From the sequence record PQ476011.1: a DNA stretch of 45,197 bases, one strand, 5' to 3'. The DNA is from Escherichia phage PhiNW-E1. The notes beneath the pieces are model-generated. The model did no database searches. It worked only from the letters and a program-made list of their open reading frames with translations, and was not told where the DNA came from. Shown piece after piece: positions 1,899 through 22,564 of this stretch. Position 1 is the stretch's first letter. Each line of letters opens with the position of its first letter. A program made the translations under genes and the position numbers.

Positions 1899-2644
1899 AA
1901 ACACCTCTGCCAGCGTAAAACCCTCTTAATTCGGTGGAACTCTCACTGAGACAATACCGAGCGAAGCCTGTTGCAATAACAGGAACGTGTAGAGACTAAC
2001 TGTAAGGCCAAGCGGTCTGAAACAGAGGGAGGCGCAAGCCTAAGATATAGTCCGACCTACTAGGTGACTAGTAGAAGTTAAAGTAGCGAATTAACGTAAC
2101 AATTGAAGGGAGTTAAATATGACAGAGCATAAAGTTTATCATATTCGTGTTGTTGGTGAAACTGATGTAATGCAAGGTTATATTGGTGTAACCTCCGATA
2201 TTAAGAAGCGTATGAGAGAGCACAAGTGTGCAGGCCGTCTTTGTGATGGCCGCGAGTACGTTATCTTATTCACTGGTAGCAAAGAAGAGTGTTATGCACT
2301 AGAAGAGAAGCTACGCCCACATGACAACATGTGTTGGAATAAGGGTAAAGGTGGTTATCGCAAAGCAGGTAACATCGAGAAAGGTGAACGCATAAGTATT
2401 GCCACTGAAATCAAGAAAGGACAGCACTTGTCTGTTGCCACTGAGTTCAAGAAAGGCATGACACCTTACAACAAAGGTACTGGCAAAGATTACATATTCA
2501 CTTCTCCAGATGGTGAAGAGTTTCTTGTAACTTGCATTACTGACTTCTGTAAAGAGCACAACCTAACACCTCAGAATATGCGTAAGGTGGCACGTGGTTT
2601 ACGTAAACACCACAAGGGTTGGCTCGCACGTCACGTTCAAACCG
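1899..2644 (+). mobile_element. Group I intron (IA-like core) carrying a homing endonuclease ORF
   Basis: P-like AATTCGGTGGAA 1928-1939; Q-like AATACCGAGC 1953-1962; R-like GTGTAGAGACTAAC 1987-2000; S AAGATATAGTCC 2041-2052; P3 CCCTCT 1921-1926 with AGAGGG 2024-2029; P7 GACTA/TAGTC; omega G at 2644; P10 CCTCT 1904-1908 with GGAGG 2645-2649. Confidence 0.7.
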
Positions 2645-2652
2645 GGAGGTAA
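2119..2652 (+). CDS. GIY-YIG homing endonuclease with NUMOD-like repeats, intron-encoded
   Basis: 177 aa; N-terminal KVYHIRVV...GYIGVT (GIY-YIG-like); repeated IATEIKKGQH / VATEFKKGMTPYNKG segments; RBS AGGGA 2106-2110; stop TAA 2650-2652 lies 8 nt into exon 2. Confidence 0.7.
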   Translation: MTEHKVYHIRVVGETDVMQGYIGVTSDIKKRMREHKCAGRLCDGREYVILFTGSKEECYALEEKLRPHDNMCWNKGKGGYRKAGNIEKGERISIATEIKKGQHLSVATEFKKGMTPYNKGTGKDYIFTSPDGEEFLVTCITDFCKEHNLTPQNMRKVARGLRKHHKGWLARHVQTGR

Positions 2653-3376
2653 GAATGGGGATGAAACGGGTGTGGCTATCGTCTTCCTGCACGGCACATT
2701 CATTTACGTGTATCAGTGCTTCGGTGTGCCAGGCGGATACCGTGAATCGTCCCTGAATCGCATTGTGCAGGCCGCAAAGCAGGCGGGTGTTAAAGAGGTA
2801 TTCATTGAGAAGAACTTTGGTCATGGCGCGTTTGAGGCCGTTATAAAGCCATACTTTGAACGAGAGTGGCCTGTAACTCTGGAAGAGGATTACGCCACAG
2901 GACAGAAAGAGTTGCGTATCATTGAGACGCTGGAGCCACTCATGGCGGCGCACAGGCTCATCTTCAATGCCGAGATGGTCAAGTCTGACCTTGAGTCAGT
3001 ACAGCACTATCCACTTGAACTACGCATGTCCTACAGTCTTTTCAATCAAATGTCGAACATCACGATTGAGAAGAACAGCCTCCGGCACGATGACCGCCTA
3101 GACGCCCTGTATGGCGCTATACGGCAATTAACTTCTCAGATAGACTATGACGAGGTTACACGGATTAATCGCCTCAGAGCGCAGGAGATGCGCGATTACA
3201 TCCATGCTATGAATACACCTCATCTACGCAGGGCAATGCTATATGGAGATTACGGTACTGAGCGAAGAGTGACCAACACTTCCGTAGCGATGCAGCAGCG
3301 AGTTTACGGGCAGAACTACCGAAATAAATCGGCAAGCAGAAATACACTTTCTGCAAGGATTTCAAGGACTTATTAA
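2645..3376 (+). CDS. Terminase large subunit, exon 2 (nuclease domain, begins GGKNGDETGVAIV)
   Basis: Frame continues from exon 1 when 1899-2644 is removed, giving ...YIDPAG|GGKNGDETG..., comparable to the T7 gp19 segment DPSGRGKDETG as I recall it; the ORF-track Met at 2594 is intronic. Confidence 0.75.
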   Translation, partial: GGKNGDETGVAIVFLHGTFIYVYQCFGVPGGYRESSLNRIVQAAKQAGVKEVFIEKNFGHGAFEAVIKPYFEREWPVTLEEDYATGQKELRIIETLEPLMAAHRLIFNAEMVKSDLESVQHYPLELRMSYSLFNQMSNITIEKNSLRHDDRLDALYGAIRQLTSQIDYDEVTRINRLRAQEMRDYIHAMNTPHLRRAMLYGDYGTERRVTNTSVAMQQRVYGQNYRNKSASRNTLSARISRTY

Positions 3377-3397
3377 TTACTGGACACTATAGAAGGA
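3375..3397 (+). promoter_or_regulatory. Phage RNAP promoter
   Basis: AATTACTGGACACTATAGAAGGA; predicted +1 G at 3392; overlaps terL stop codon. Confidence 0.7.
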
Positions 3398-3537
3398 AGG
3401 CCAAGATAATAAGATAAAATAATAGGTAATATATAGGTTAACCTAGGTTATATAGGTATGCCTTAGTATGGGTGTACTCCTGTACACCCTATTCCTTACT
3501 ACCTTACTATATTTACATAATAGGAGAGAGAGAGACA

Positions 3538-5548: not shown

Positions 5549-7984
5549 ATGATTCAAAGACTAGGTTCTTCATTAGTTAAATTCAAGAGTAAAATAGCAG
5601 GTGCAATCTGGCGTAACTTGGATGACAAGCTCACCGAGGTTGTATCGCTTAAAGATTTTGGAGCCAAAGGTGATGGTAAGACAAACGACCAAGATGCAGT
5701 AAATGCAGCGATGGCTTCAGGTAAGAGAATTGACGGTGCTGGTGCTACTTACAAAGTATCATCTTTACCTGATATGGAGCGATTCTATAACACCCGCTTC
5801 GTATGGGAACGTTTAGCAGGTCAACCTCTTTACTATGTGAGTAAAGGTTTTATCAATGGTGAACTCTATAAAATCACGGATAACCCTTATTACAATGCTT
5901 GGCCTCAAGACAAGGCGTTTGTATATGAGAATGTGATATATGCACCCTACATGGGTAGCGACCGTCATGGTGTTAGTCGTCTGCATGTATCATGGGTTAA
6001 GTCTGGTGACGATGGTCAAACATGGTCTACTCCAGAGTGGCTAACTGATCTGCATCCAGATTACCCTACAGTGAACTATCATTGTATGAGTATGGGTGTA
6101 TGTCGCAACCGTCTGTTTGCCATGATTGAAACACGTACTTTAGCCAAGAACGCACTAACCAATTGTGCATTGTGGGATCGCCCTATGTCTCGTAGTCTGC
6201 ATCTTACTGGTGGTATCACTAAGGCTGCAAATCAGAAATATGCAACAATCCATGTACCTGATCACGGACTATTCGTGGGCGATTTTGTTAACTTCTCTAA
6301 TTCTGCGGTAACAGGTGTATCAGGTGATATGACTGTTGCAACGGTAATAGATAAGGACAACTTCACGGTTCTTACACCTAACCAGCAGACTTCAGATTTG
6401 AATAACGCTGGAAAGAGTTGGCACATGGGTACTTCTTTCCATAAGTCTCCATGGCGTAAGACAGATCTTGGTCTAATCCCTAGTGTCACAGAGGTGCATA
6501 GCTTTGCTACTATTGATAACAATGGCTTTGTTATGGGCTATCATCAAGGTGATGTAGCTCCACGAGAAGTTGGTCTTTTCTACTTCCCTGATGCTTTCAA
6601 TAGCCCATCTAATTATGTTCGTCGTCAGATACCAGCTGAGTATGAACCAGATGCGGCAGAGCCATGCATCAAGTACTATGACGGTGTATTATACCTTATC
6701 ACTCGTGGTACTCGTGGCGACCAACTAGGAAGCTCTTTGCATCGTAGTAGAGATATAGGTCAGACTTGGGAGTCACTTAGATTTCCACATAATGTTCATC
6801 ATACTACCTTACCTTTTGCTAAAGTAGGAGATGACCTTATTATGTTTGGTTCAGAACGTGCAGAAAATGAATGGGAAGCAGGTGCACCAGATGATCGTTA
6901 CAAGGCATCTTATCCTCGTACCTTCTATGCACGATTGAATGTAAACAATTGGAATGCAGATGATATTGAATGGGTTAACATCACAGACCAAATCTATCAA
7001 GGTGACATTGTGAACTCTAGTGTAGGTGTAGGTTCTGTTGTAGTTAAAGACAGCTACATTTACTATATCTTTGGTGGTGAAAACCATTTCAACCCAATGA
7101 CTTATGGTGACAACACAGATAAAGACCCATTTAAAGGTCATGGACACCCTACTGATATATACTGCTATAAGATGCAGATTGCAAATGACAATCGTGTATC
7201 TCGTAAGTTTACATATGGTGCAACTCCTGGTCAGGCTATACCTACTTTCATGGGTACTGATGGAATACGAAATATCCCTGCACCTTTGTATTTCTCAGAT
7301 AACATTGTTACAGAGGATACTAAAGTTGGACACTTAACACTTAAAGCAAGCACAAGTTCCAATATACGATCTGAAGTGCAGATGGAAGGTGAATATGGCT
7401 TTATTGGCAAGTCTGTTCCAAAGGACAACCCAACTGGTCAACGTTTGATTATTTGTGGTGGAGAAAAGACTTCGTCATCTTCAGGTGCACAGATAACTTT
7501 GCACGGCTCTAATTCAAGTAATGCTAAGCGTATCACTTATAACGGAAATGAGCACCTATTCCAAGGTGCACCAATCATGCCTGCTGTAGATAACCAGTTT
7601 GCTGCTGGTGGACCTAGTAACCGATTCACTACCATCTACATAGGTAGTGACCCTGTTACAACTTCAGATGCTGACCACAAGTACGGTATCTCTGGTATTA
7701 ATACCAAGGTGTTAAAGGCTTGGAGCGGGGTTGGTTTTAAACAGTATGGTTTGAATAGTGAAGCAGAGAGGAACCTTGATAGCATACACTTCGGTGTCTT
7801 GGCTCAGGATATTGTAGCTGCTTTTGAAGCTGAAGGGTTAGATGCCATTAAGTATGGAATTGTGTCCTTCGAAGAAGGTAGGTACGGTGTGAGATATAGT
7901 GAAGTTCTAATCCTAGAGGCTGCCTATACTCGCCATCGTCTTGATAAATTAGAGGAGATGCATGCCACTAATAAAATCAGTTAA
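5549..7984 (+). CDS. Tailspike, endo-N-acetylneuraminidase (endosialidase) type with C-terminal chaperone-like region
   Basis: 811 aa; RBS AAAAGGAGG; lacks a T7 gp17-like N-terminal adaptor domain; length and overall sequence recall the K1E/K1-5 endosialidase (from memory, unverified). Confidence 0.75.
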   Translation: MIQRLGSSLVKFKSKIAGAIWRNLDDKLTEVVSLKDFGAKGDGKTNDQDAVNAAMASGKRIDGAGATYKVSSLPDMERFYNTRFVWERLAGQPLYYVSKGFINGELYKITDNPYYNAWPQDKAFVYENVIYAPYMGSDRHGVSRLHVSWVKSGDDGQTWSTPEWLTDLHPDYPTVNYHCMSMGVCRNRLFAMIETRTLAKNALTNCALWDRPMSRSLHLTGGITKAANQKYATIHVPDHGLFVGDFVNFSNSAVTGVSGDMTVATVIDKDNFTVLTPNQQTSDLNNAGKSWHMGTSFHKSPWRKTDLGLIPSVTEVHSFATIDNNGFVMGYHQGDVAPREVGLFYFPDAFNSPSNYVRRQIPAEYEPDAAEPCIKYYDGVLYLITRGTRGDQLGSSLHRSRDIGQTWESLRFPHNVHHTTLPFAKVGDDLIMFGSERAENEWEAGAPDDRYKASYPRTFYARLNVNNWNADDIEWVNITDQIYQGDIVNSSVGVGSVVVKDSYIYYIFGGENHFNPMTYGDNTDKDPFKGHGHPTDIYCYKMQIANDNRVSRKFTYGATPGQAIPTFMGTDGIRNIPAPLYFSDNIVTEDTKVGHLTLKASTSSNIRSEVQMEGEYGFIGKSVPKDNPTGQRLIICGGEKTSSSSGAQITLHGSNSSNAKRITYNGNEHLFQGAPIMPAVDNQFAAGGPSNRFTTIYIGSDPVTTSDADHKYGISGINTKVLKAWSGVGFKQYGLNSEAERNLDSIHFGVLAQDIVAAFEAEGLDAIKYGIVSFEEGRYGVRYSEVLILEAAYTRHRLDKLEEMHATNKIS

Positions 7985-8113: not shown

Positions 8114-8961
8114 AGGTTAATATCTTAGTGTACACAAGGGCAGACTTAGGTTTGCTCTTAGTGTAATCCAAGGAGGTAACATGCAAGAGGAGAATTGGGA
8201 TGTGTAATGTTGGATATGGAGAAGGTTGAACCTTAGTGTTGTACAAGGATTAACCAAAGTAAAAATTTTGATATAGGCGTGTGTGAGGTGTCTCGCCCTC
8301 GCCCTCGCCGGATTTCCCCCATATGGGGCCGCGCTGCGGTTGGCTTGGGAATTGGGCTAGGCTGGTCCGTCTTCGACGGGTGGCCTAGGGCTTGCCGAAG
8401 TCTGCTCTTAGTGGCTGCACAAGGAGAACGCCTAGGAAGCGCTAGGGCACGCCTTAGTATTGGACAAGGTGATTGCCTTAGTGCAACCGCTTAGGGCTTA
8501 CACAGGCCGTTTTAGGGCCATTCCTGAGCATTTGACAGGGTGAGCGTGGGTTGGCTATCTGTTCGTTTCGCTCCACTACGTTACGCTACACTCACCGCGC
8601 TTGTGTACCTTAGGTTATTCCTTGATGGATAGCTTAGGTTAGCCTTAGTGGACTACCTTAGTTAAAGCCTTAGTGCTTAGCTTAGTATCAGCTTAGTAGT
8701 GTACCTTAGTCAGACTTAGTGTCTTCTCTTAGTGATTGCACATGCAAGCATGTAAGATGCCATTAGGTCGCGGTCGGTAGACCGCTAAAGAAAGAGAATA
8801 GTAATAAGATGCAGTAGGAGGAACACCAGAAACCTAGCCAACCTAGTCTATCCTAGCTCTGTATCTATTGCTTTCCTTAGTCTCACATGTTAGACAACCT
8901 ATGTTTATCTTAGTAGTTGTGACATGTATCACATAAATAATCTATCTTAGTGAAACTTAGT
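8114..8961. repeat. Array of about 25 CTTAGT-type short direct repeats in an ORF-poor region (presumed genome terminus / packaging region)
   Basis: Five longer units CTTAGTR-N4-6-CAAGG at 8114-8129, 8147-8163, 8232-8248, 8407-8424, 8458-8474; a GC-rich island at about 8285-8600 holds CTCGCC x3 (8292-8309) and palindrome CCCCCATATGGGG (8316-8328). Confidence 0.6.
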
Positions 8962-12226: not shown

Positions 12227-14854
12227 ATGCAAGACCTACACGCTATTCAACTTCAACTTGAAGAAGAAATGTTTAACGGCGGTATCCGTCGCTTTGAAGC
12301 GGACCAACAACGCCAGATTGCATCCGGTAATGAATCAGACACGGCATGGAATCGCCGTTTATTGTCCGAGTTAATCGCGCCAATGGCTGAAGGTATTCAG
12401 GCATACAAGGAAGAGTATGAAGGTAAAAGAGGCCGTGCACCGCGTGCATTAGCTTTCATTAACTGCGTAGAAAACGAAGTGGCAGCATATATCACGATGA
12501 AAATCGTTATGGATATGCTGAATACAGACGTTACCTTACAAGCAATCGCTATGAATGTAGCGGACCGCATCGAAGACCAAGTACGTTTTAGCAAGCTGGA
12601 AGGTCACGCAGCTAAGTACTTTGAGAAAGTGAAGAAGTCGCTTAAGGCTAGCAAGACTAAATCTTATCGTCATGCGCACAACGTAGCGGTAGTAGCTGAG
12701 AAATCTGTTGCTGACCGTGACGCGGATTTCTCCCGTTGGGAGGCATGGCCTAAAGATACCTTGCTACAAATCGGTATGACCTTGCTAGAAATACTGGAAA
12801 ATAGTGTATTCTTCAATGGTCAGCCTGTCTTTCTTCGCACCTTGCGCACTAATGGTGGCAAGCATGGCGTTTACTACTTACAGACCAGTGAACACGTAGG
12901 GGAATGGATTACAGCATTTAAAGAACATGTAGCGCAACTTAGCCCGGCTTATGCACCTTGCGTTATACCTCCTCGTCCGTGGGTTTCTCCTTTTAATGGC
13001 GGTTTTCACACTGAGAAGGTAGCAAGTCGTGTGCGTCTTGTTAAAGGCAGCCGTGAACACGTCCGCAAGCTGACCAAAAAGCAAATGCCAGCGGTTTACA
13101 AGGCTGTTAACGCTTTGCAGGCGACTAAATGGCAGGTTAACAAGGAAGTTTTACAGGTTGTTGAGGACGTAATACGGCTTGATTTAGGCTATGGCGTACC
13201 TTCCTTCAAACCACTCATCGACCGCGAGAACAAGCCAGCTAATCCGGTGCCGTTAGAGTTCCAGCACCTGCGAGGCCGTGAACTGAAAGAAATGTTAACA
13301 CCGGAACAATGGCAAGCCTTCATCAACTGGAAAGGTGAATGCACCAAGCTGTATACCGCTGAGACTAAGCGCGGCAGCAAATCGGCGGCGACCGTCCGCA
13401 TGGTAGGGCAGGCCCGTAAATACAGCCAATTTGACGCAATATACTTCGTGTATGCTCTGGACAGCCGCAGCCGCGTCTACGCGCAATCTAGCACGCTCTC
13501 TCCGCAATCAAACGACTTAGGCAAGGCATTGCTCCGTTTTACCGAAGGGCAGCGTCTTGATAGCGCTGAGGCGCTTAAGTGGTTTTTGGTGAACGGGGCT
13601 AATAACTGGGGTTGGGATAAGAAAACTTTTGACGTGCGCACCGCTAACGTGCTGGATAGTGAATTTCAAGACATGTGCCGCGACATTGCAGCGGATCCGC
13701 TGACCTTCACTCAATGGGTAAATGCCGACTCCCCTTACGGCTTCCTTGCATGGTGCTTTGAATATGCGCGTTATCTGGATGCACTGGATGAAGGCACGCA
13801 AGACCAATTCATGACGCACCTCCCAGTCCATCAAGATGGTAGTTGTTCTGGTATCCAGCACTACAGTGCTATGCTACGCGATGCAGTAGGTGCGAAAGCG
13901 GTAAACCTTAAGCCCTCTGACTCACCTCAAGATATTTATGGTGCCGTTGCGCAGGTAGTAATTCAGAAGAATTATGCATACATGAATGCAGAGGATGCGG
14001 AAACCTTCACTTCTGGCAGCGTGACTTTAACAGGTGCAGAACTTCGTAGCATGGCTAGTGCGTGGGATATGATAGGAATCACTCGCGGCCTGACCAAAAA
14101 GCCTGTAATGACACTACCTTATGGCAGCACACGTCTAACCTGCCGTGAATCAGTGATTGATTATATCGTTGATTTGGAAGAAAAAGAGGCCCAACGGGCT
14201 ATTGCGGAAGGGCGTACCGCCAATCCTGTACATCCTTTTGATAATGACCGCAAAGACAGCCTGACACCTAGCGCAGCTTATAACTATATGACAGCTTTAA
14301 TCTGGCCTTCTATTTCGGAAGTGGTTAAAGCTCCTATAGTGGCAATGAAAATGATTCGTCAGCTTGCACGTTTCGCAGCTAAAAGAAACGAAGGCTTAGA
14401 ATATCCCTTACCAACTGGCTTCATCTTGCAACAAAAGATAATGGCTACCGATATGCTCCGCGTATCCACTTGCTTGATGGGTGAAATCAAGATGAGTCTC
14501 CAGATTGAAACAGATGTAGTTGATGAAACGGCAATGATGGGTGCGGCTGCCCCTAACTTCGTCCATGGTCACGATGCTAGCCACCTGATTCTGACTGTAT
14601 GTGACCTAGTGGATAAAGGTATTACATCCATTGCAGTCATCCATGATTCTTTCGGTACTCATGCAGGACGTACCGCAGACCTGCGGGATAGCTTAAGGGA
14701 AGAAATGGTTAAGATGTATCAAAACCATAATGCCCTGCAAAACCTGCTAGATGTGCACGAAGAGCGTTGGTTAGTAGACACCGGAATCCAAGTACCAGAG
14801 CAAGGAGAGTTTGACCTTAACGAAATCTTAGTTTCAGACTATTGTTTCGCATAA
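12227..14854 (+). CDS. Single-subunit DNA-dependent RNA polymerase (T7 gene 1 family)
   Basis: 875 aa; RBS AGGAG; C-terminal ...AVIHDSFGT...ILVSDYCFA matches the T7 RNAP C-terminus (HDSFGT motif C, FAFA-type end). Confidence 0.95.
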
Positions 14855-14862
14855 TATTAATA

Positions 14863-14893
14863 GGCCATTCCTTAGGGAGTGGCCTTTTTCTTT
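14863..14893 (+). terminator. Intrinsic terminator after the RNAP gene
   Basis: GGCCATTCC-TTAG-GGAGTGGCC 9-bp stem (one G-U) followed by TTTTTCTTT. Confidence 0.6.
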
Positions 14894-14928
14894 ACCTACT
14901 ACCTGTAACATTTCATTAACATAAAAGT

Positions 14929-14944
14929 GTCTCACATGTGAGAC
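14929..14944. repeat. 16-bp perfect palindrome GTCTCACATGTGAGAC, copy 1
   Basis: One of six copies; 3 bp upstream of promoter 14947. Confidence 0.7.
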
Positions 14945-14946
14945 TT

Positions 14947-14969
14947 ATTTACCGGACACTATAGGATAG
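14947..14969 (+). promoter_or_regulatory. Phage RNAP promoter
   Basis: TATTTACCGGACACTATAGGATAG; +1 G at 14964. Confidence 0.65.
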
Positions 14970-15119
14970 CCGTCGGAGACGGGAAAGAAAGGGAAGATAA
15001 AGGATATAAAGGAAGTAATAGGTATTAAAGGTTATATAGGTTATCTAGGAATACCTAGGAATACCTATTACCTTCTTCCTTCCTCTTATTACCACTTAGA
15101 GGAAGGGCAGACCTAGGTT

Positions 15120-15135
15120 GTCTCACATGTGAGAC
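15120..15135. repeat. 16-bp palindrome GTCTCACATGTGAGAC, copy 2
   Basis: Immediately upstream of promoter-like 15141. Confidence 0.7.
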
Positions 15136-15140
15136 TTCGT

Positions 15141-15163
15141 ATTTACCGGACAGTATAGATAAG
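15141..15163 (+). promoter_or_regulatory. Variant phage promoter (C to G at -5)
   Basis: ATTTACCGGACAGTATAGATAAG; tandem with promoter 14947 across an AT-rich repeat region. Confidence 0.45.
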
Positions 15164-15185
15164 ATTAACTTACTTTGGAGGTTAC

Positions 15186-15602
15186 ATGCGTAAATCATTA
15201 GCTCAAAGAGTAGAGCAAGCAGGTTATACTATACAAGACGACGGTACTATCAAAGGTAGGCGAGGTAACATCTTGAAACCTTGGCTTCAATCTTCAGGTT
15301 ATCCAGTTGTAAATATAGTATTCAAGAAAGGTACAAGGACAACTACCCTTGTGCATCGCATAATTGCTAGTAAGTATTGTCCTTGCTCTGACCCGTTGGC
15401 TAATGATGTAAACCACAAAGACGGAATCAAGACTAATAATGCAGCTTCTAATCTTGAATGGATTACACGTAGGCAGAACCGTAATCACTATTTAGGTTTT
15501 GAGGACTATATGACACTTACGGCAGATGATGCCCGTAAGAAGAATAATGAGCGCACTATTGCTCGACGTAAATTACTTAAACAGTTGAATAATAAGGACT
15601 AA
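15186..15602 (+). CDS. HNH homing endonuclease (free-standing)
   Basis: 138 aa; RBS GGAGG; VHRIIASKY...NHKDGIKTNNAASNLEWITRRQN; paralog of 293-745. Confidence 0.75.
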   Translation: MRKSLAQRVEQAGYTIQDDGTIKGRRGNILKPWLQSSGYPVVNIVFKKGTRTTTLVHRIIASKYCPCSDPLANDVNHKDGIKTNNAASNLEWITRRQNRNHYLGFEDYMTLTADDARKKNNERTIARRKLLKQLNNKD

Positions 15603-15604
15603 TT

Positions 15605-15736
15605 ATGCGTACTAACTTCGAAAAGATGACCCGTAAGGCTAACCGTTTTGACATGGAAGAAGGGCAGAAGAAAGGCAAGAAGCTGAATAAACCTGTCCGT
15701 GACCGTGCATCTAAACGCGCTGCGTGGGAGTTCTAA
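15605..15736 (+). CDS. Small basic protein, T7 gp1.1-like
   Basis: 43 aa, hand-translated (MRTNFEKMTRKANRF...KLNKPVRDRASKRAAWEF); resembles T7 gp1.1 as I recall it. Confidence 0.6.
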   Translation: MRTNFEKMTRKANRFDMEEGQKKGKKLNKPVRDRASKRAAWEF

Positions 15737-15739
15737 GTT

Positions 15740-17728
15740 ATGGCTATTATTCAGAATGTACCGTGTCCTGCCTGTCAAAAGAATGGACACGATAAATCCG
15801 GCAATCATCTCATGATATTTGATGATGGTGCTGGCTATTGTAACCGTGGTCATTTCCACGATAACGGCAAGCCTTACTATCATAAGCCAGATGGTGGCAT
15901 CGAGATCACCGAGTTGCCTATTACTGGCAATATCAAATATACACCTTCTCAATTCAAAGAGATGGAGAAGGAAGGGAAGATAAGCGACCCTAAGTTACGC
16001 GCCATCGCACTTGGTGGCATGCGTATGAAAGACCGATGGGAGGTCATGAATGAGCAAGAAAGGGCAGACCAAGAAGCAGAGTGGAAACTTGATGTTGAAT
16101 GGTTCCTCACGCTTAAGCGTAAGAATCTTGTTTCCCGACACATTCGCGGCGACATTTGCGCATTGTATGATGTACGTGTCGGACACGATGAAGATGGTAG
16201 AGTCTCACGGCATTACTATCCACGCTTCGAGAAAGGTGAGCTAGTAGGCGCTAAGTGTCGCACATTACCTAAAGACTTTAAGTTTGGTCATTTAGGTAAA
16301 CTCTTTGGTATGCAAGATCTTTTCGGTATGAATACCTTGTCTCACGTGTTAGACAAGGGAAGACGAAAGGATTGCTTGCTTATTGTGGGCGGCGAACTGG
16401 ATGCACTAGCAGCACAGCAAATGCTCCTTGATTCTGCCAAGGGTACTAAGTGGGAAGGCCAGCCTTACCATGTATGGTCTGTCAATAAAGGTGAGTCTTG
16501 CCTTGAAGAGATAGTACAGAACCGTGAACACATCGCCCAATTTAAGAAGATTATATGGGGTTTTGATGGCGACGAGGTGGGGCAGAAGCAGAATCAGCAA
16601 GCGGCTCGCCTGTTTCCTGGCAAATCCTATATCCTTGAATACCCTTCTGGTTGCAAAGATGCTAACAAGGCATTGATGGCTGGCAAGGCTAAAGAGTTTG
16701 TTGATGCTTGGTTTAATGCCAAGTCATCTGATGAAGTCTTTGGTAGCCAGATTAAATCTATCGCATCTCAAAGGGATAAGCTCAAGGCTGCACGTCCAGA
16801 GCAAGGGTTATCATGGCCTTGGCCTAAGCTGAACAAGGTAACGCTAGGTATTCGTAAGAACCAGCTTATCATTGTAGGTGCAGGCTCTGGTGTAGGTAAG
16901 ACTGAGTTCCTTCGCGAAGTGGTTAAGCACCTCATTGAAGAGCACGGTGAATCTGTAGGCATCATTTCTACAGAAGACCCGATGGTCAAGGTGTCCCGTG
17001 CTTTTATCGGTAAGTGGATTGATAAGCGTATTGAGTTACCGCCAACCAACGACCCGAAAGAAGACGGATACCGTGAGGTGTTCGACTACACCGAGGAAGA
17101 AGCTAACGCTGCCATTGATTATGTGGCTGATACAGGAAAGCTATTTGTGGCTGACCTAGAGGGTGACTATTCGATGGAGAAGGTAGAGCAAACTTGCCTA
17201 GAGTTTGAGGCTATGGGTATTTCTAATATCATCATTGATAACTTAACGGGGATTAAATTAGATGAGCGTGCTTTTGGTGGGAAGGTTGGTGCACTTGATG
17301 AATGCGTCAAACGAATTGGTACTATCAAAGACCGACATGCGGTTACGATTTTCCTTGTCTCTCACCTTACACGTCCTCCGGCAAACCGTACCCAACACGA
17401 AGAAGGTGGCGAAGTTATCCTTTCTGACTTCCGAGGCTCAGGCGCTATCGGATTCTGGGCATCTTACGCCTTGGGGATTGAGCGTAATACAAGAGCTGAA
17501 ACGCTTGATGAAAGGACTACCACGTACATCTCTTGTGTCAAAGACCGCGACCAAGGTATCTACACAGGAACCAAAGTCATGCTCAAGGGTGACATTCAGA
17601 CCGGACGCTTGAGAGAACCACAAGCTAGAACAAGGTCGTTTGATACAGGCGAAGCAAGGCAACAAGAAGTACCGGATTTACCGGACACTATAGAAGAGAC
17701 AACATTTGACGATGAACAGGAGTTTTAA
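15740..17728 (+). CDS. DNA primase/helicase (T7 gp4 family)
   Basis: 662 aa; N-terminal Cys zinc motif CPACQKNGHD...CNRGH; Walker A GAGSGVGKT; acidic C-terminal tail ending DDEQEF. Confidence 0.9.
   Translation: MAIIQNVPCPACQKNGHDKSGNHLMIFDDGAGYCNRGHFHDNGKPYYHKPDGGIEITELPITGNIKYTPSQFKEMEKEGKISDPKLRAIALGGMRMKDRWEVMNEQERADQEAEWKLDVEWFLTLKRKNLVSRHIRGDICALYDVRVGHDEDGRVSRHYYPRFEKGELVGAKCRTLPKDFKFGHLGKLFGMQDLFGMNTLSHVLDKGRRKDCLLIVGGELDALAAQQMLLDSAKGTKWEGQPYHVWSVNKGESCLEEIVQNREHIAQFKKIIWGFDGDEVGQKQNQQAARLFPGKSYILEYPSGCKDANKALMAGKAKEFVDAWFNAKSSDEVFGSQIKSIASQRDKLKAARPEQGLSWPWPKLNKVTLGIRKNQLIIVGAGSGVGKTEFLREVVKHLIEEHGESVGIISTEDPMVKVSRAFIGKWIDKRIELPPTNDPKEDGYREVFDYTEEEANAAIDYVADTGKLFVADLEGDYSMEKVEQTCLEFEAMGISNIIIDNLTGIKLDERAFGGKVGALDECVKRIGTIKDRHAVTIFLVSHLTRPPANRTQHEEGGEVILSDFRGSGAIGFWASYALGIERNTRAETLDERTTTYISCVKDRDQGIYTGTKVMLKGDIQTGRLREPQARTRSFDTGEARQQEVPDLPDTIEETTFDDEQEF
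17676..17698 (+). promoter_or_regulatory. Phage RNAP promoter embedded in the 3' end of the primase/helicase gene
   Basis: GATTTACCGGACACTATAGAAGAG; +1 G at 17693. Confidence 0.65.
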
Positions 17729-17889
17729 TGGAAATTATTAAACCAGTATTGAATATCGGTATTGAAATCCTATTCATGCTTGTGATCGCAGATTATGCTG
17801 CACGATATGGATTCAAGAAAGCTGTGAAACTTATCGTTGCATCTGGTTTTCTTATGTCAATGTTCTTTATTGTAACACGCCTTATCTAG
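17728..17889 (+). CDS. Small membrane protein (53 aa)
   Basis: Hand-translated; ATG overlaps helicase stop (TAATG); two hydrophobic segments. Confidence 0.45.
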   Translation: MEIIKPVLNIGIEILFMLVIADYAARYGFKKAVKLIVASGFLMSMFFIVTRLI

Positions 17890-17906: not shown

Positions 17907-17922
17907 GTCTCACATGTGAGAC
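17907..17922. repeat. 16-bp palindrome GTCTCACATGTGAGAC, copy 3 (extended hairpin 17901-17928 with U-rich 3' flank)
   Basis: Flanks extend the stem; followed by CTCTTATTAAG. Confidence 0.7.
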
Positions 17923-22476: not shown

Positions 22477-22499
22477 ATTTACTGGACACTATAGAAGGA
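22477..22499 (+). promoter_or_regulatory. Phage RNAP promoter
   Basis: GATTTACTGGACACTATAGAAGGA; +1 G at 22494; followed by TAGGT-rich leader. Confidence 0.7.
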
Positions 22500-22564
22500 A
22501 AGCCTAGGTAATCTAGGTTTATAAGGTAGTATAGGTAATTAAGTAAATATAGGAGATATAAAAT

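Follow-up and report, generated by a model that had tools for sequence, protein, structure and literature searches.

The window analysed here is the whole 45,197-nucleotide (nt) stretch of Escherichia phage PhiNW-E1 (PQ476011.1), which represents a circularly permuted complete genome, because position 1 of phage K1E corresponds approximately to window position 8124. The 1.1 kb around our locus match 79 phage records at 90–99% identity, nearly all of them Vectrevirus, the K1E/K1-5-like phages of the SP6 supergroup (Autographiviridae, Molineuxvirinae). The locus occupies the interval between the gene for the phage RNA polymerase (RNAP) and a homologue of T7 gene 1.1, whose SP6 counterpart carries the RefSeq label gp1.1 (Table 1). 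In T7, the end of gene 1 (5822) is followed by promoters phi1.1A (5848) and phi1.1B (5923) and then by gene 1.1 (6007); flanked by the same two genes, the locus corresponds in position to the phi1.1A/phi1.1B origin region of T7. The domain matches of both neighbours bear out this much of the preliminary description, which had proposed a primary replication origin placed as in T7.

Table 1 Features of the locus and palindrome copies elsewhere in the window
Feature	Window position	Strand	Basis and remarks
Single-subunit phage RNAP gene	12227–14854	+	PF00940 and PF14700; RNA polymerase in K1E and VEc3 annotation
Intrinsic-terminator-like hairpin and T-run	14862–14895	+	Just 3′ of RNAP stop codon; terminator scan: 10-pair stem, then TTTTTCTTT
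Single-copy 20-mer CCTGTAACATTTCATTAACA	14902–14921		1 copy in window versus 0 expected
Palindrome copy 1, GTCTCACATGTGAGAC	14929–14944		Genome-wide family member; SP6 6093; before P1
Phage-RNAP promoter P1, ATTTACCGGACACTATAGGATAG	14947–14969	+	0 mismatches to window consensus; +1 inferred at G14964
5′ stem-loop CCGUC-GGA-GACGG	14970–14982	+	5 bp, +7 to +19 of P1 transcript; predicted in every fold
Purine-rich tract	14983–15008	+	Fold prediction: mostly unpaired
Long irregular A/U-rich hairpin	15009–15077	+	Fold prediction: 69 nt, 24 pairs; 12-bp inverted repeat as core, 10-bp duplication in apex
Second hairpin, CCUUCCUCU / AGAGGAAGG	15078–15106	+	Fold prediction and repeat scan: 9 bp
Palindrome copy 2, GTCTCACATGTGAGAC	15120–15135		Repeat scan; SP6 6264, orthologue GTCTAACGTGTTGGAC with U·G wobble on + strand; before P2
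Phage-RNAP promoter P2, non-consensus, ATTTACCGGACAGTATAGATAAG	15141–15163	+	−5 C to G; +1 inferred at G15158
HNH homing-endonuclease gene	15186–15602	+	PF13392; inserted between P2 and gene 1.1
T7 gene 1.1 homologue	15605–15736	+	PF08200 Phage_1_1, E 3.5e-15; 54% identity to T7 gp1.1
Primase/helicase gene	15740–17728	+	DnaB_C and Toprim_2; internal palindrome copy at 16339
Palindrome	8880		SP6 493; upstream of sigma70-like promoter near left end
Palindrome	16339		SP6 7071; within primase/helicase codons
Palindrome	17907		SP6 8547; terminator-like extended hairpin
Palindrome	19302		SP6 9383; terminator-like extended hairpin
Palindrome	24361		SP6 14255; before another phage promoter
Palindrome	40804		SP6 30569; terminator-like extended hairpin

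The terminator-like hairpin behind the RNAP gene is annotated as a terminator in phage KAW1A4500, and the segment 14855–14946 that contains it folds with a z-score of −4.2. T7 has a hairpin between phi1.1A and phi1.1B, which we take to be R1.1 (Dunn and Studier 1983). The window hairpin (GGCCAUUCC...GAGUGGCCUUUUU) resembles the upper stem of R1.1 (GGUCAUUCGCAAGAGUGGCCUUUAU; 262–290 of our T7 sequence, L004), and SP6 has the same GGUCA...UGGCC stem, including its U·G pair. Further downstream, the 20-mer CCTGTAACATTTCATTAACA is near-invariant in Vectrevirus, SP6/Zindervirus, BP12B, Klebsiella phages and IMG/VR contigs, within intergenic DNA that is otherwise only about 68% identical. No match to a sigma70 promoter was found in the region or in the 20-mer itself.

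The 18-mer consensus of the phage promoters has 12 matches in the window versus 0.03 expected, with no mismatch in P1 and one in P2; the P1 match covers the −17 to −1 segment. Both promoters of the preliminary description, at 14947 and, as a variant, at 15141, are read directly there, each preceded by a copy of a 16-bp palindrome as it had said. By these matches, the locus has putative promoters for the phage’s own RNAP, as a T7-type origin would need. P1 is kept in all relatives and changes in step with the promoter type of each lineage. P2 deviates from the consensus in every lineage compared (L005–L010 and L022), by −5 C to G in Vectrevirus, by −1 A to T (TATTG) in SP6, BP12B, the Klebsiella phages and PST_H2 and by a different change from the lineage consensus in contig L022. 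Palindrome 2 and P2 together have a single variable column in 44 across 11 Vectrevirus sequences, and this near-invariance of a deviant promoter suggests selection for a deliberately non-consensus P2. Its start site would lie only 27 nt from the next start codon.

Between the promoters, the roughly 170 bp that had been described as free of open reading frames (ORFs) indeed contain no plus-strand ORF of at least 20 amino acids. Their coding potential is limited to tiny, unconserved minus-strand ORFs that some automatic pipelines annotate; that of 47 amino acids at 15055–15198 is spurious, because it starts inside the HNH insertion, which is missing in most relatives. The GC content of 14970–15140 is 0.40 versus 0.449 for the genome, which places the region in the lowest-GC 1% when windows of 60 bp are compared but in the lowest 8% with windows of 170 bp. 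Downstream of P1, the best 61-bp window (14997–15057) reaches 74% AT versus 55% for the genome, and the DNA downstream of the promoters at 3375, 22477, 17676, 18524 and 27562, with 74–77% AT, matches or exceeds it. The AT-richness is ordinary for promoter-proximal DNA of this genome, and with five other promoters matching it, a rule of ‘promoter plus AT-rich DNA’ does not make the site unique. TAGG words are enriched about ninefold between the promoters (5 in 171 bp). The earlier picture of a TAGGT-rich, AT-rich stretch therefore holds for the words, whereas the AT-richness is modest and no higher than after several other promoters.

TAGG(T)-rich, A/T-rich leaders (74–77% AT) are also seen at 3392–3475 and 22494–22555, directly 3′ of the promoters at 3375 and 22477. 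They resemble the inter-promoter stretch in word content and are conserved in SP6 (promoters 37773 and 12542).

Two repeats reported for the inter-promoter DNA are both present. The perfect 12-bp inverted repeat at 15015–15026 / 15060–15071 extends to 18 nt with 89% complementarity (15009–15026 / 15060–15077). The tandem 10-bp repeat, CTAGGAATAC ×2 at 15045–15064, is real, though polymorphic among relatives: the duplication (15045–15054) is absent from K1E and VEc3. It is a lineage-specific polymorphic duplication in the apex of a predicted hairpin.

The palindrome before each promoter is one of eight window copies with at most 3 mismatches, versus 0.23 expected. SP6 (L025) has nine copies, comprising those of Table 1 and one at 17752, and the eight window copies match SP6 copies site for site (the GTCYMACRYGTKRGAC family). 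The palindrome is not an origin-specific element, but a genome-wide family. Its pairs 4–13 (UA, CG, UG) and 5–12 (AU, CG) covary, seven of the nine SP6 copies carry a U·G wobble on the + strand, and the flanking, G·U-containing stems of three extended copies show compensatory changes from SP6 to the window. These three, at 17907, 19302 and 40804, are predicted to form about 13 pairs with U-rich tails, and those at 14929 and 15120 form a 6-pair stem (3 GC pairs) with interrupted T-runs. We read the palindromes as probable RNA hairpins at transcription-unit boundaries. A phage factor that co-evolves with the palindrome type was also considered, an idea undermined by PST_H2, whose single genome carries both types. 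A search of the literature did not find the palindrome sequence.

The predicted P1 transcript (14964–15140) folds into four elements (z = −2.5), namely the 5′ stem-loop, the long hairpin, the second hairpin and, as the fourth, the palindrome 2 hairpin. Across 12 distinct leaders, the 5′ stem is paired in 100% of cells, and its middle pair is GC, AU or CG. A long hairpin of 21–32 pairs is predicted in every lineage with differing arm sequences: GUAAUAGGUAUU / AAUACCUAUUAC in the window, UAAUAGGAAG / CUUCCUAUUA in SP6 and AAUAAAGGAA / UUCCUUUAUU in the Klebsiella phages. RNAalifold across genera recovers the 5′ stem-loop, the apical stem and the palindrome but misses the long stem, because its arms are rearranged between genera. 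The long hairpin was instead assessed by per-lineage folds and by shuffles that keep the composition of each half. With the halves shuffled separately, z-scores range from −2.7 to −5.8 per lineage, values that are somewhat optimistic because the segment was picked from the minimum-free-energy fold. Of 20 sequences, 18 fold better as the + strand than as the minus strand; for the window sequence there is no difference between strands. Rfam gave no family match, the only hits in the region being below-threshold resemblances to miRNA precursors. The preservation of pairing while arm sequences differ, together with the compensatory changes in the 5′ stem-loop, points to an RNA-level function, and the pattern indicates that selection acts on the predicted leader RNA structures.

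We compared the architecture in K1E, KAW1A4500, VEc3, SP6, UAB_Phi78, BP12B, two Klebsiella phages and 18 IMG/VR loci. The shared order runs from the terminator hairpin through the 20-mer, palindrome, P1, 5′ stem-loop, purine-rich tract, a pyrimidine-rich tract and the second palindrome to the non-consensus P2 and gene 1.1, and as aligned and predicted here this architecture is kept across Molineuxvirinae genera. Contig L022, which has another promoter specificity, shows an identical layout. PST_H2 has the same layout except for an endonuclease-gene remnant of about 370 bp between the hairpin and palindrome 2/P2; tolerance of this remnant implies that the spacing of P1 and P2 is not critical. 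In the alignment of the 11 Vectrevirus sequences, variable columns make up a fraction of 0.55 of RNAP third codon positions, 0.22 of 14970–15119 (about 0.16 without the duplication), 0.10 of palindrome 1/P1 and 0.02 of palindrome 2/P2. The difference between 0.16–0.22 and 0.55 indicates purifying selection on the inter-promoter DNA. No natural deletion of this DNA was found among 101 matching phage records.

The HNH gene behind P2 is absent from K1E and most relatives, and most relatives align to the window in two pieces. It occupies the identical site in VEc3, G9 and the Zindervirus UAB_Phi78 (L008, 893–1303), and the same gene after P2 in the window, VEc3 and UAB_Phi78 indicates transfer between genera. 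The RNAP/gene 1.1 interval is a hot spot of homing-endonuclease insertion.

Several further observations concern mobile elements. The HNH ORF of the window reuses the ATGCGTAA start context of gene 1.1. In BP12B, an HNH gene lies 3′ of gene 1.1 (L009, 1004 onward), and in PST_H2 (L026) the endonuclease remnant lies 5′ of palindrome 2, within the RNAP/gene 1.1 interval. Elsewhere in the window, a group I intron (Rfam RF00028, 61 bits, E 3.5e-13; 1826–2074, +) appears to split the gene for the terminase large subunit, with ORFs at 693–1949, 2119–2652 and 2594–3376 around the match. The ORF directly 3′ of the intron match has weak GIY-YIG and NUMOD matches, and a downstream ORF of the split terminase carries an RNaseH-like domain of the T7-terminase type. 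The ‘DNA packaging protein’ of PST_H2 is similarly split, with a homing endonuclease.

We tentatively propose, with a probability slightly below an even chance, that the locus is the SP6-group counterpart of the T7 gene 1/gene 1.1 control region, including an RNAP-dependent origin function; the part of this proposal that concerns the promoters and the structured leader is, taken alone, highly probable. Host RNA polymerase would stop at the hairpin and T-run just past the RNAP gene, and the newly made phage RNAP would start at tandem P1 (+1 at about 14964) and P2 (+1 at about 15158). The transcripts of both promoters, with P1 presumably reading through into P2, would enter the replication module of HNH insert, gene 1.1 homologue and primase/helicase. 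The approximately 170 nt between the promoters would be transcribed from P1 as a structured leader composed of the 5′ stem-loop, the purine-rich tract, the 69-nt A/U-rich hairpin, the 9-bp hairpin and the palindromic hairpin. As the most conditional step above all, P1 transcription through this easily melted stretch would be the most likely site of a T7-style, RNAP-dependent start of replication.

For the origin step, we infer from synteny only that the T7-origin position and the T7-like replication proteins make the locus the best single candidate for an RNAP-dependent origin. The earlier origin reading thus retains its T7-like position, but the hallmarks it invoked are genome-wide (palindrome and TAGG words), ordinary (AT content) or polymorphic (tandem repeat). 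SP6 primase recognizes 5′-GCA-3′ (PMC2034472), and a T7 origin contains one primase recognition site (PMC2910064). The locus has one GCA on the + strand, at 15107, and none on the minus strand, versus about seven expected for both strands together; the triplet at 15107 has no conserved counterpart in BP12B, L021, L022 or the Klebsiella phages.

In the literature reached, which did not extend to the primary genome papers, no mapped origin was found for the SP6/K1E group. Dobbins et al. (2004) reportedly suggested the DNA polymerase gene as a bidirectional origin in SP6, according to a secondary source that states no method (PMC4837284), a placement that counts against our locus, and a paper on a phiKMV-like phage placed the origin by GC skew. 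In our hands the cumulative skew curve is monotonic in the window, T7 and SP6, and its detrended minimum lies about 0.9 kb from the candidate and 3.6 kb off the true T7 origin. The strand asymmetry of primase sites (GCA for the SP6 type; GTC or pentamers for T7) shows no switch at the known T7 origin. Since skew and primase-site asymmetry both miss the T7 origin, they carry no weight for this locus. We assume that GC skew also guided the 2004 placement in SP6.

A different reading, which we consider quite possible although somewhat short of an even chance, is that the locus serves only transcription and RNA processing. P1 and P2 would be middle (class II-like) promoters, the long hairpin would be an RNase III-type processing or stability site like R1.1 in the matching T7 interval, and replication would start elsewhere or at many promoters. 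RNase III sites are helices of about two turns, usually with internal loops or bulges (PMC1540722), and the 24-pair hairpin at 15009–15077 and its counterparts of 21–32 pairs are of this kind and lie in a region predicted to be transcribed. The reading is also in keeping with the similar z-score (−2.7) of the T7 phi1.1A–phi1.1B segment, with the preservation of structure rather than sequence, and with the undistinctive AT content. However, the long hairpin has no similarity to T7 R1.1, whose look-alike is the terminator hairpin at 14862–14885; it matches no Rfam family, the window hairpin folds equally well on both strands, and RNase III cleavage is unpredictable from sequence. T7 combines an origin and RNA processing in one interval, so the two readings are compatible. 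Less conservatively, the P1 transcript could be a dedicated structured origin RNA whose hairpin is cut by RNase III or RNase H to leave a 3′ end for the phage DNA polymerase, in the style of ColE1 RNA II, with the GTCYMACRYGTKRGAC hairpins at eight orthologous transcription-unit boundaries bound by a phage or host factor; we regard this extension as unlikely.

Were the P1 product instead a discrete non-coding RNA, about 170 nt long, with its end at the palindrome 2 hairpin and a role as a regulator or dedicated replication primer, P2 alone would drive the downstream genes. Predicted structure runs through the whole leader, the palindrome hairpin with UUCGUAUUU behind it scored as terminator-like, and P2 follows at once, so that the downstream genes could be independent of P1. 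Phage RNAPs, however, require stable hairpins plus U-runs to terminate, as at T7 Tphi, and a 6-bp stem with a broken U-run would be a weak terminator. The same palindrome also lies in the primase/helicase coding sequence, where termination would be harmful, and PST_H2 carries its endonuclease-gene remnant between the hairpin and palindrome 2, which together make this a distinctly improbable arrangement. An origin of the iteron or cruciform type, in which the palindromes, tandem 10-mers or TAGG words bind an initiator that melts the A/T-rich DNA, seems to us more improbable still. The two identical flanking palindromes, the TAGG enrichment and the invariant single-copy 20-mer just upstream would fit such DNA-level recognition. 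Yet the palindrome recurs in eight copies at SP6-orthologous sites with RNA-type covariation and wobbles, the tandem 10-mer is a polymorphic duplication, TAGG-rich stretches also follow the promoters at 3375 and 22477, and pairing persists from genus to genus even though the words are rearranged. We also know of no initiator-type protein in the T7 supergroup.

The SP6/K1E group is the source of widely used RNA polymerases and of several therapeutic K1-specific phages, and the analysis defines a control region in it with two promoters, four predicted RNA hairpins, an invariant 20-mer and an insertion-tolerant site. The existence of a homologue of the T7 region would itself be expected by a specialist; what is added is the structural anatomy and the recognition that palindrome, AT content and tandem repeat are not origin markers. 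In particular, the palindrome and AT content should not serve as origin markers in these genomes. If an origin were confirmed here, a second subfamily would come under the T7 model of RNAP-primed initiation, with a layout that is different and structured.

Every T7 origin requires a promoter for T7 RNAP, and phi1.1A and phi1.1B are the primary origins (PMC8373140). Our locus resembles this system in its position directly after the RNAP gene and before the gene 1.1 homologue, in two tandem phage-RNAP promoters with A/T-rich DNA downstream of a promoter, in the T7-like replication genes just downstream and in having one primase triplet, although the one here is not kept in several relatives. It differs in the spacing of the promoters, which is 194 bp here versus 75 bp in T7, and in the placement of the A/T-rich DNA. 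As a control, the best 61-bp window after phi1.1B recovers the known T7 segment (79% AT at 5931, in a genome of 52% AT), which lies 3′ of both promoters and lacks structure (z −0.45); the 74%-AT segment of the window lies between the promoters and forms a conserved predicted hairpin. The claimed match to the T7 layout is therefore loose, extending to the paired promoters and not to the arrangement of the AT-rich part. Furthermore, T7 has a promoter upstream of the hairpin that follows gene 1 and the window phage has none; in the window phage, palindromes flank the promoters of the proposed origin.

The T7 phi1.1A–phi1.1B segment folds as a hairpin with z −2.7, and the long hairpin of the window has z −2.4. 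The latter is like R1.1 in being an irregular hairpin of about two turns, with a comparable z-score, in a presumably transcribed intercistronic leader 3′ of a phage promoter. It is unlike R1.1 in sequence; R1.1 aligns instead with the terminator hairpin 5′ of P1, which MAFFT places opposite T7 GGTCATTCGCAAGAGTGGCCTTT. This alignment suggests that P1 corresponds in position to phi1.1B and that the T7 AT-rich segment has its counterpart in the structured stretch. Because the similarity is short, homology is no more than plausible. The resemblance of the window and T7 hairpins suggests a common ancestral hairpin for the RNase III site of T7 and the early terminator of the SP6 group. The T7 secondary origins (such as phiOR and phi6.5), a promoter followed by A/T-rich DNA, offer a looser comparison that fits the promoters at 3375, 22477, 17676, 18524 and 27562 as well as P1. 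Unlike these, only the P1/P2 locus combines primary-origin synteny, tandem promoters and the invariant 20-mer.
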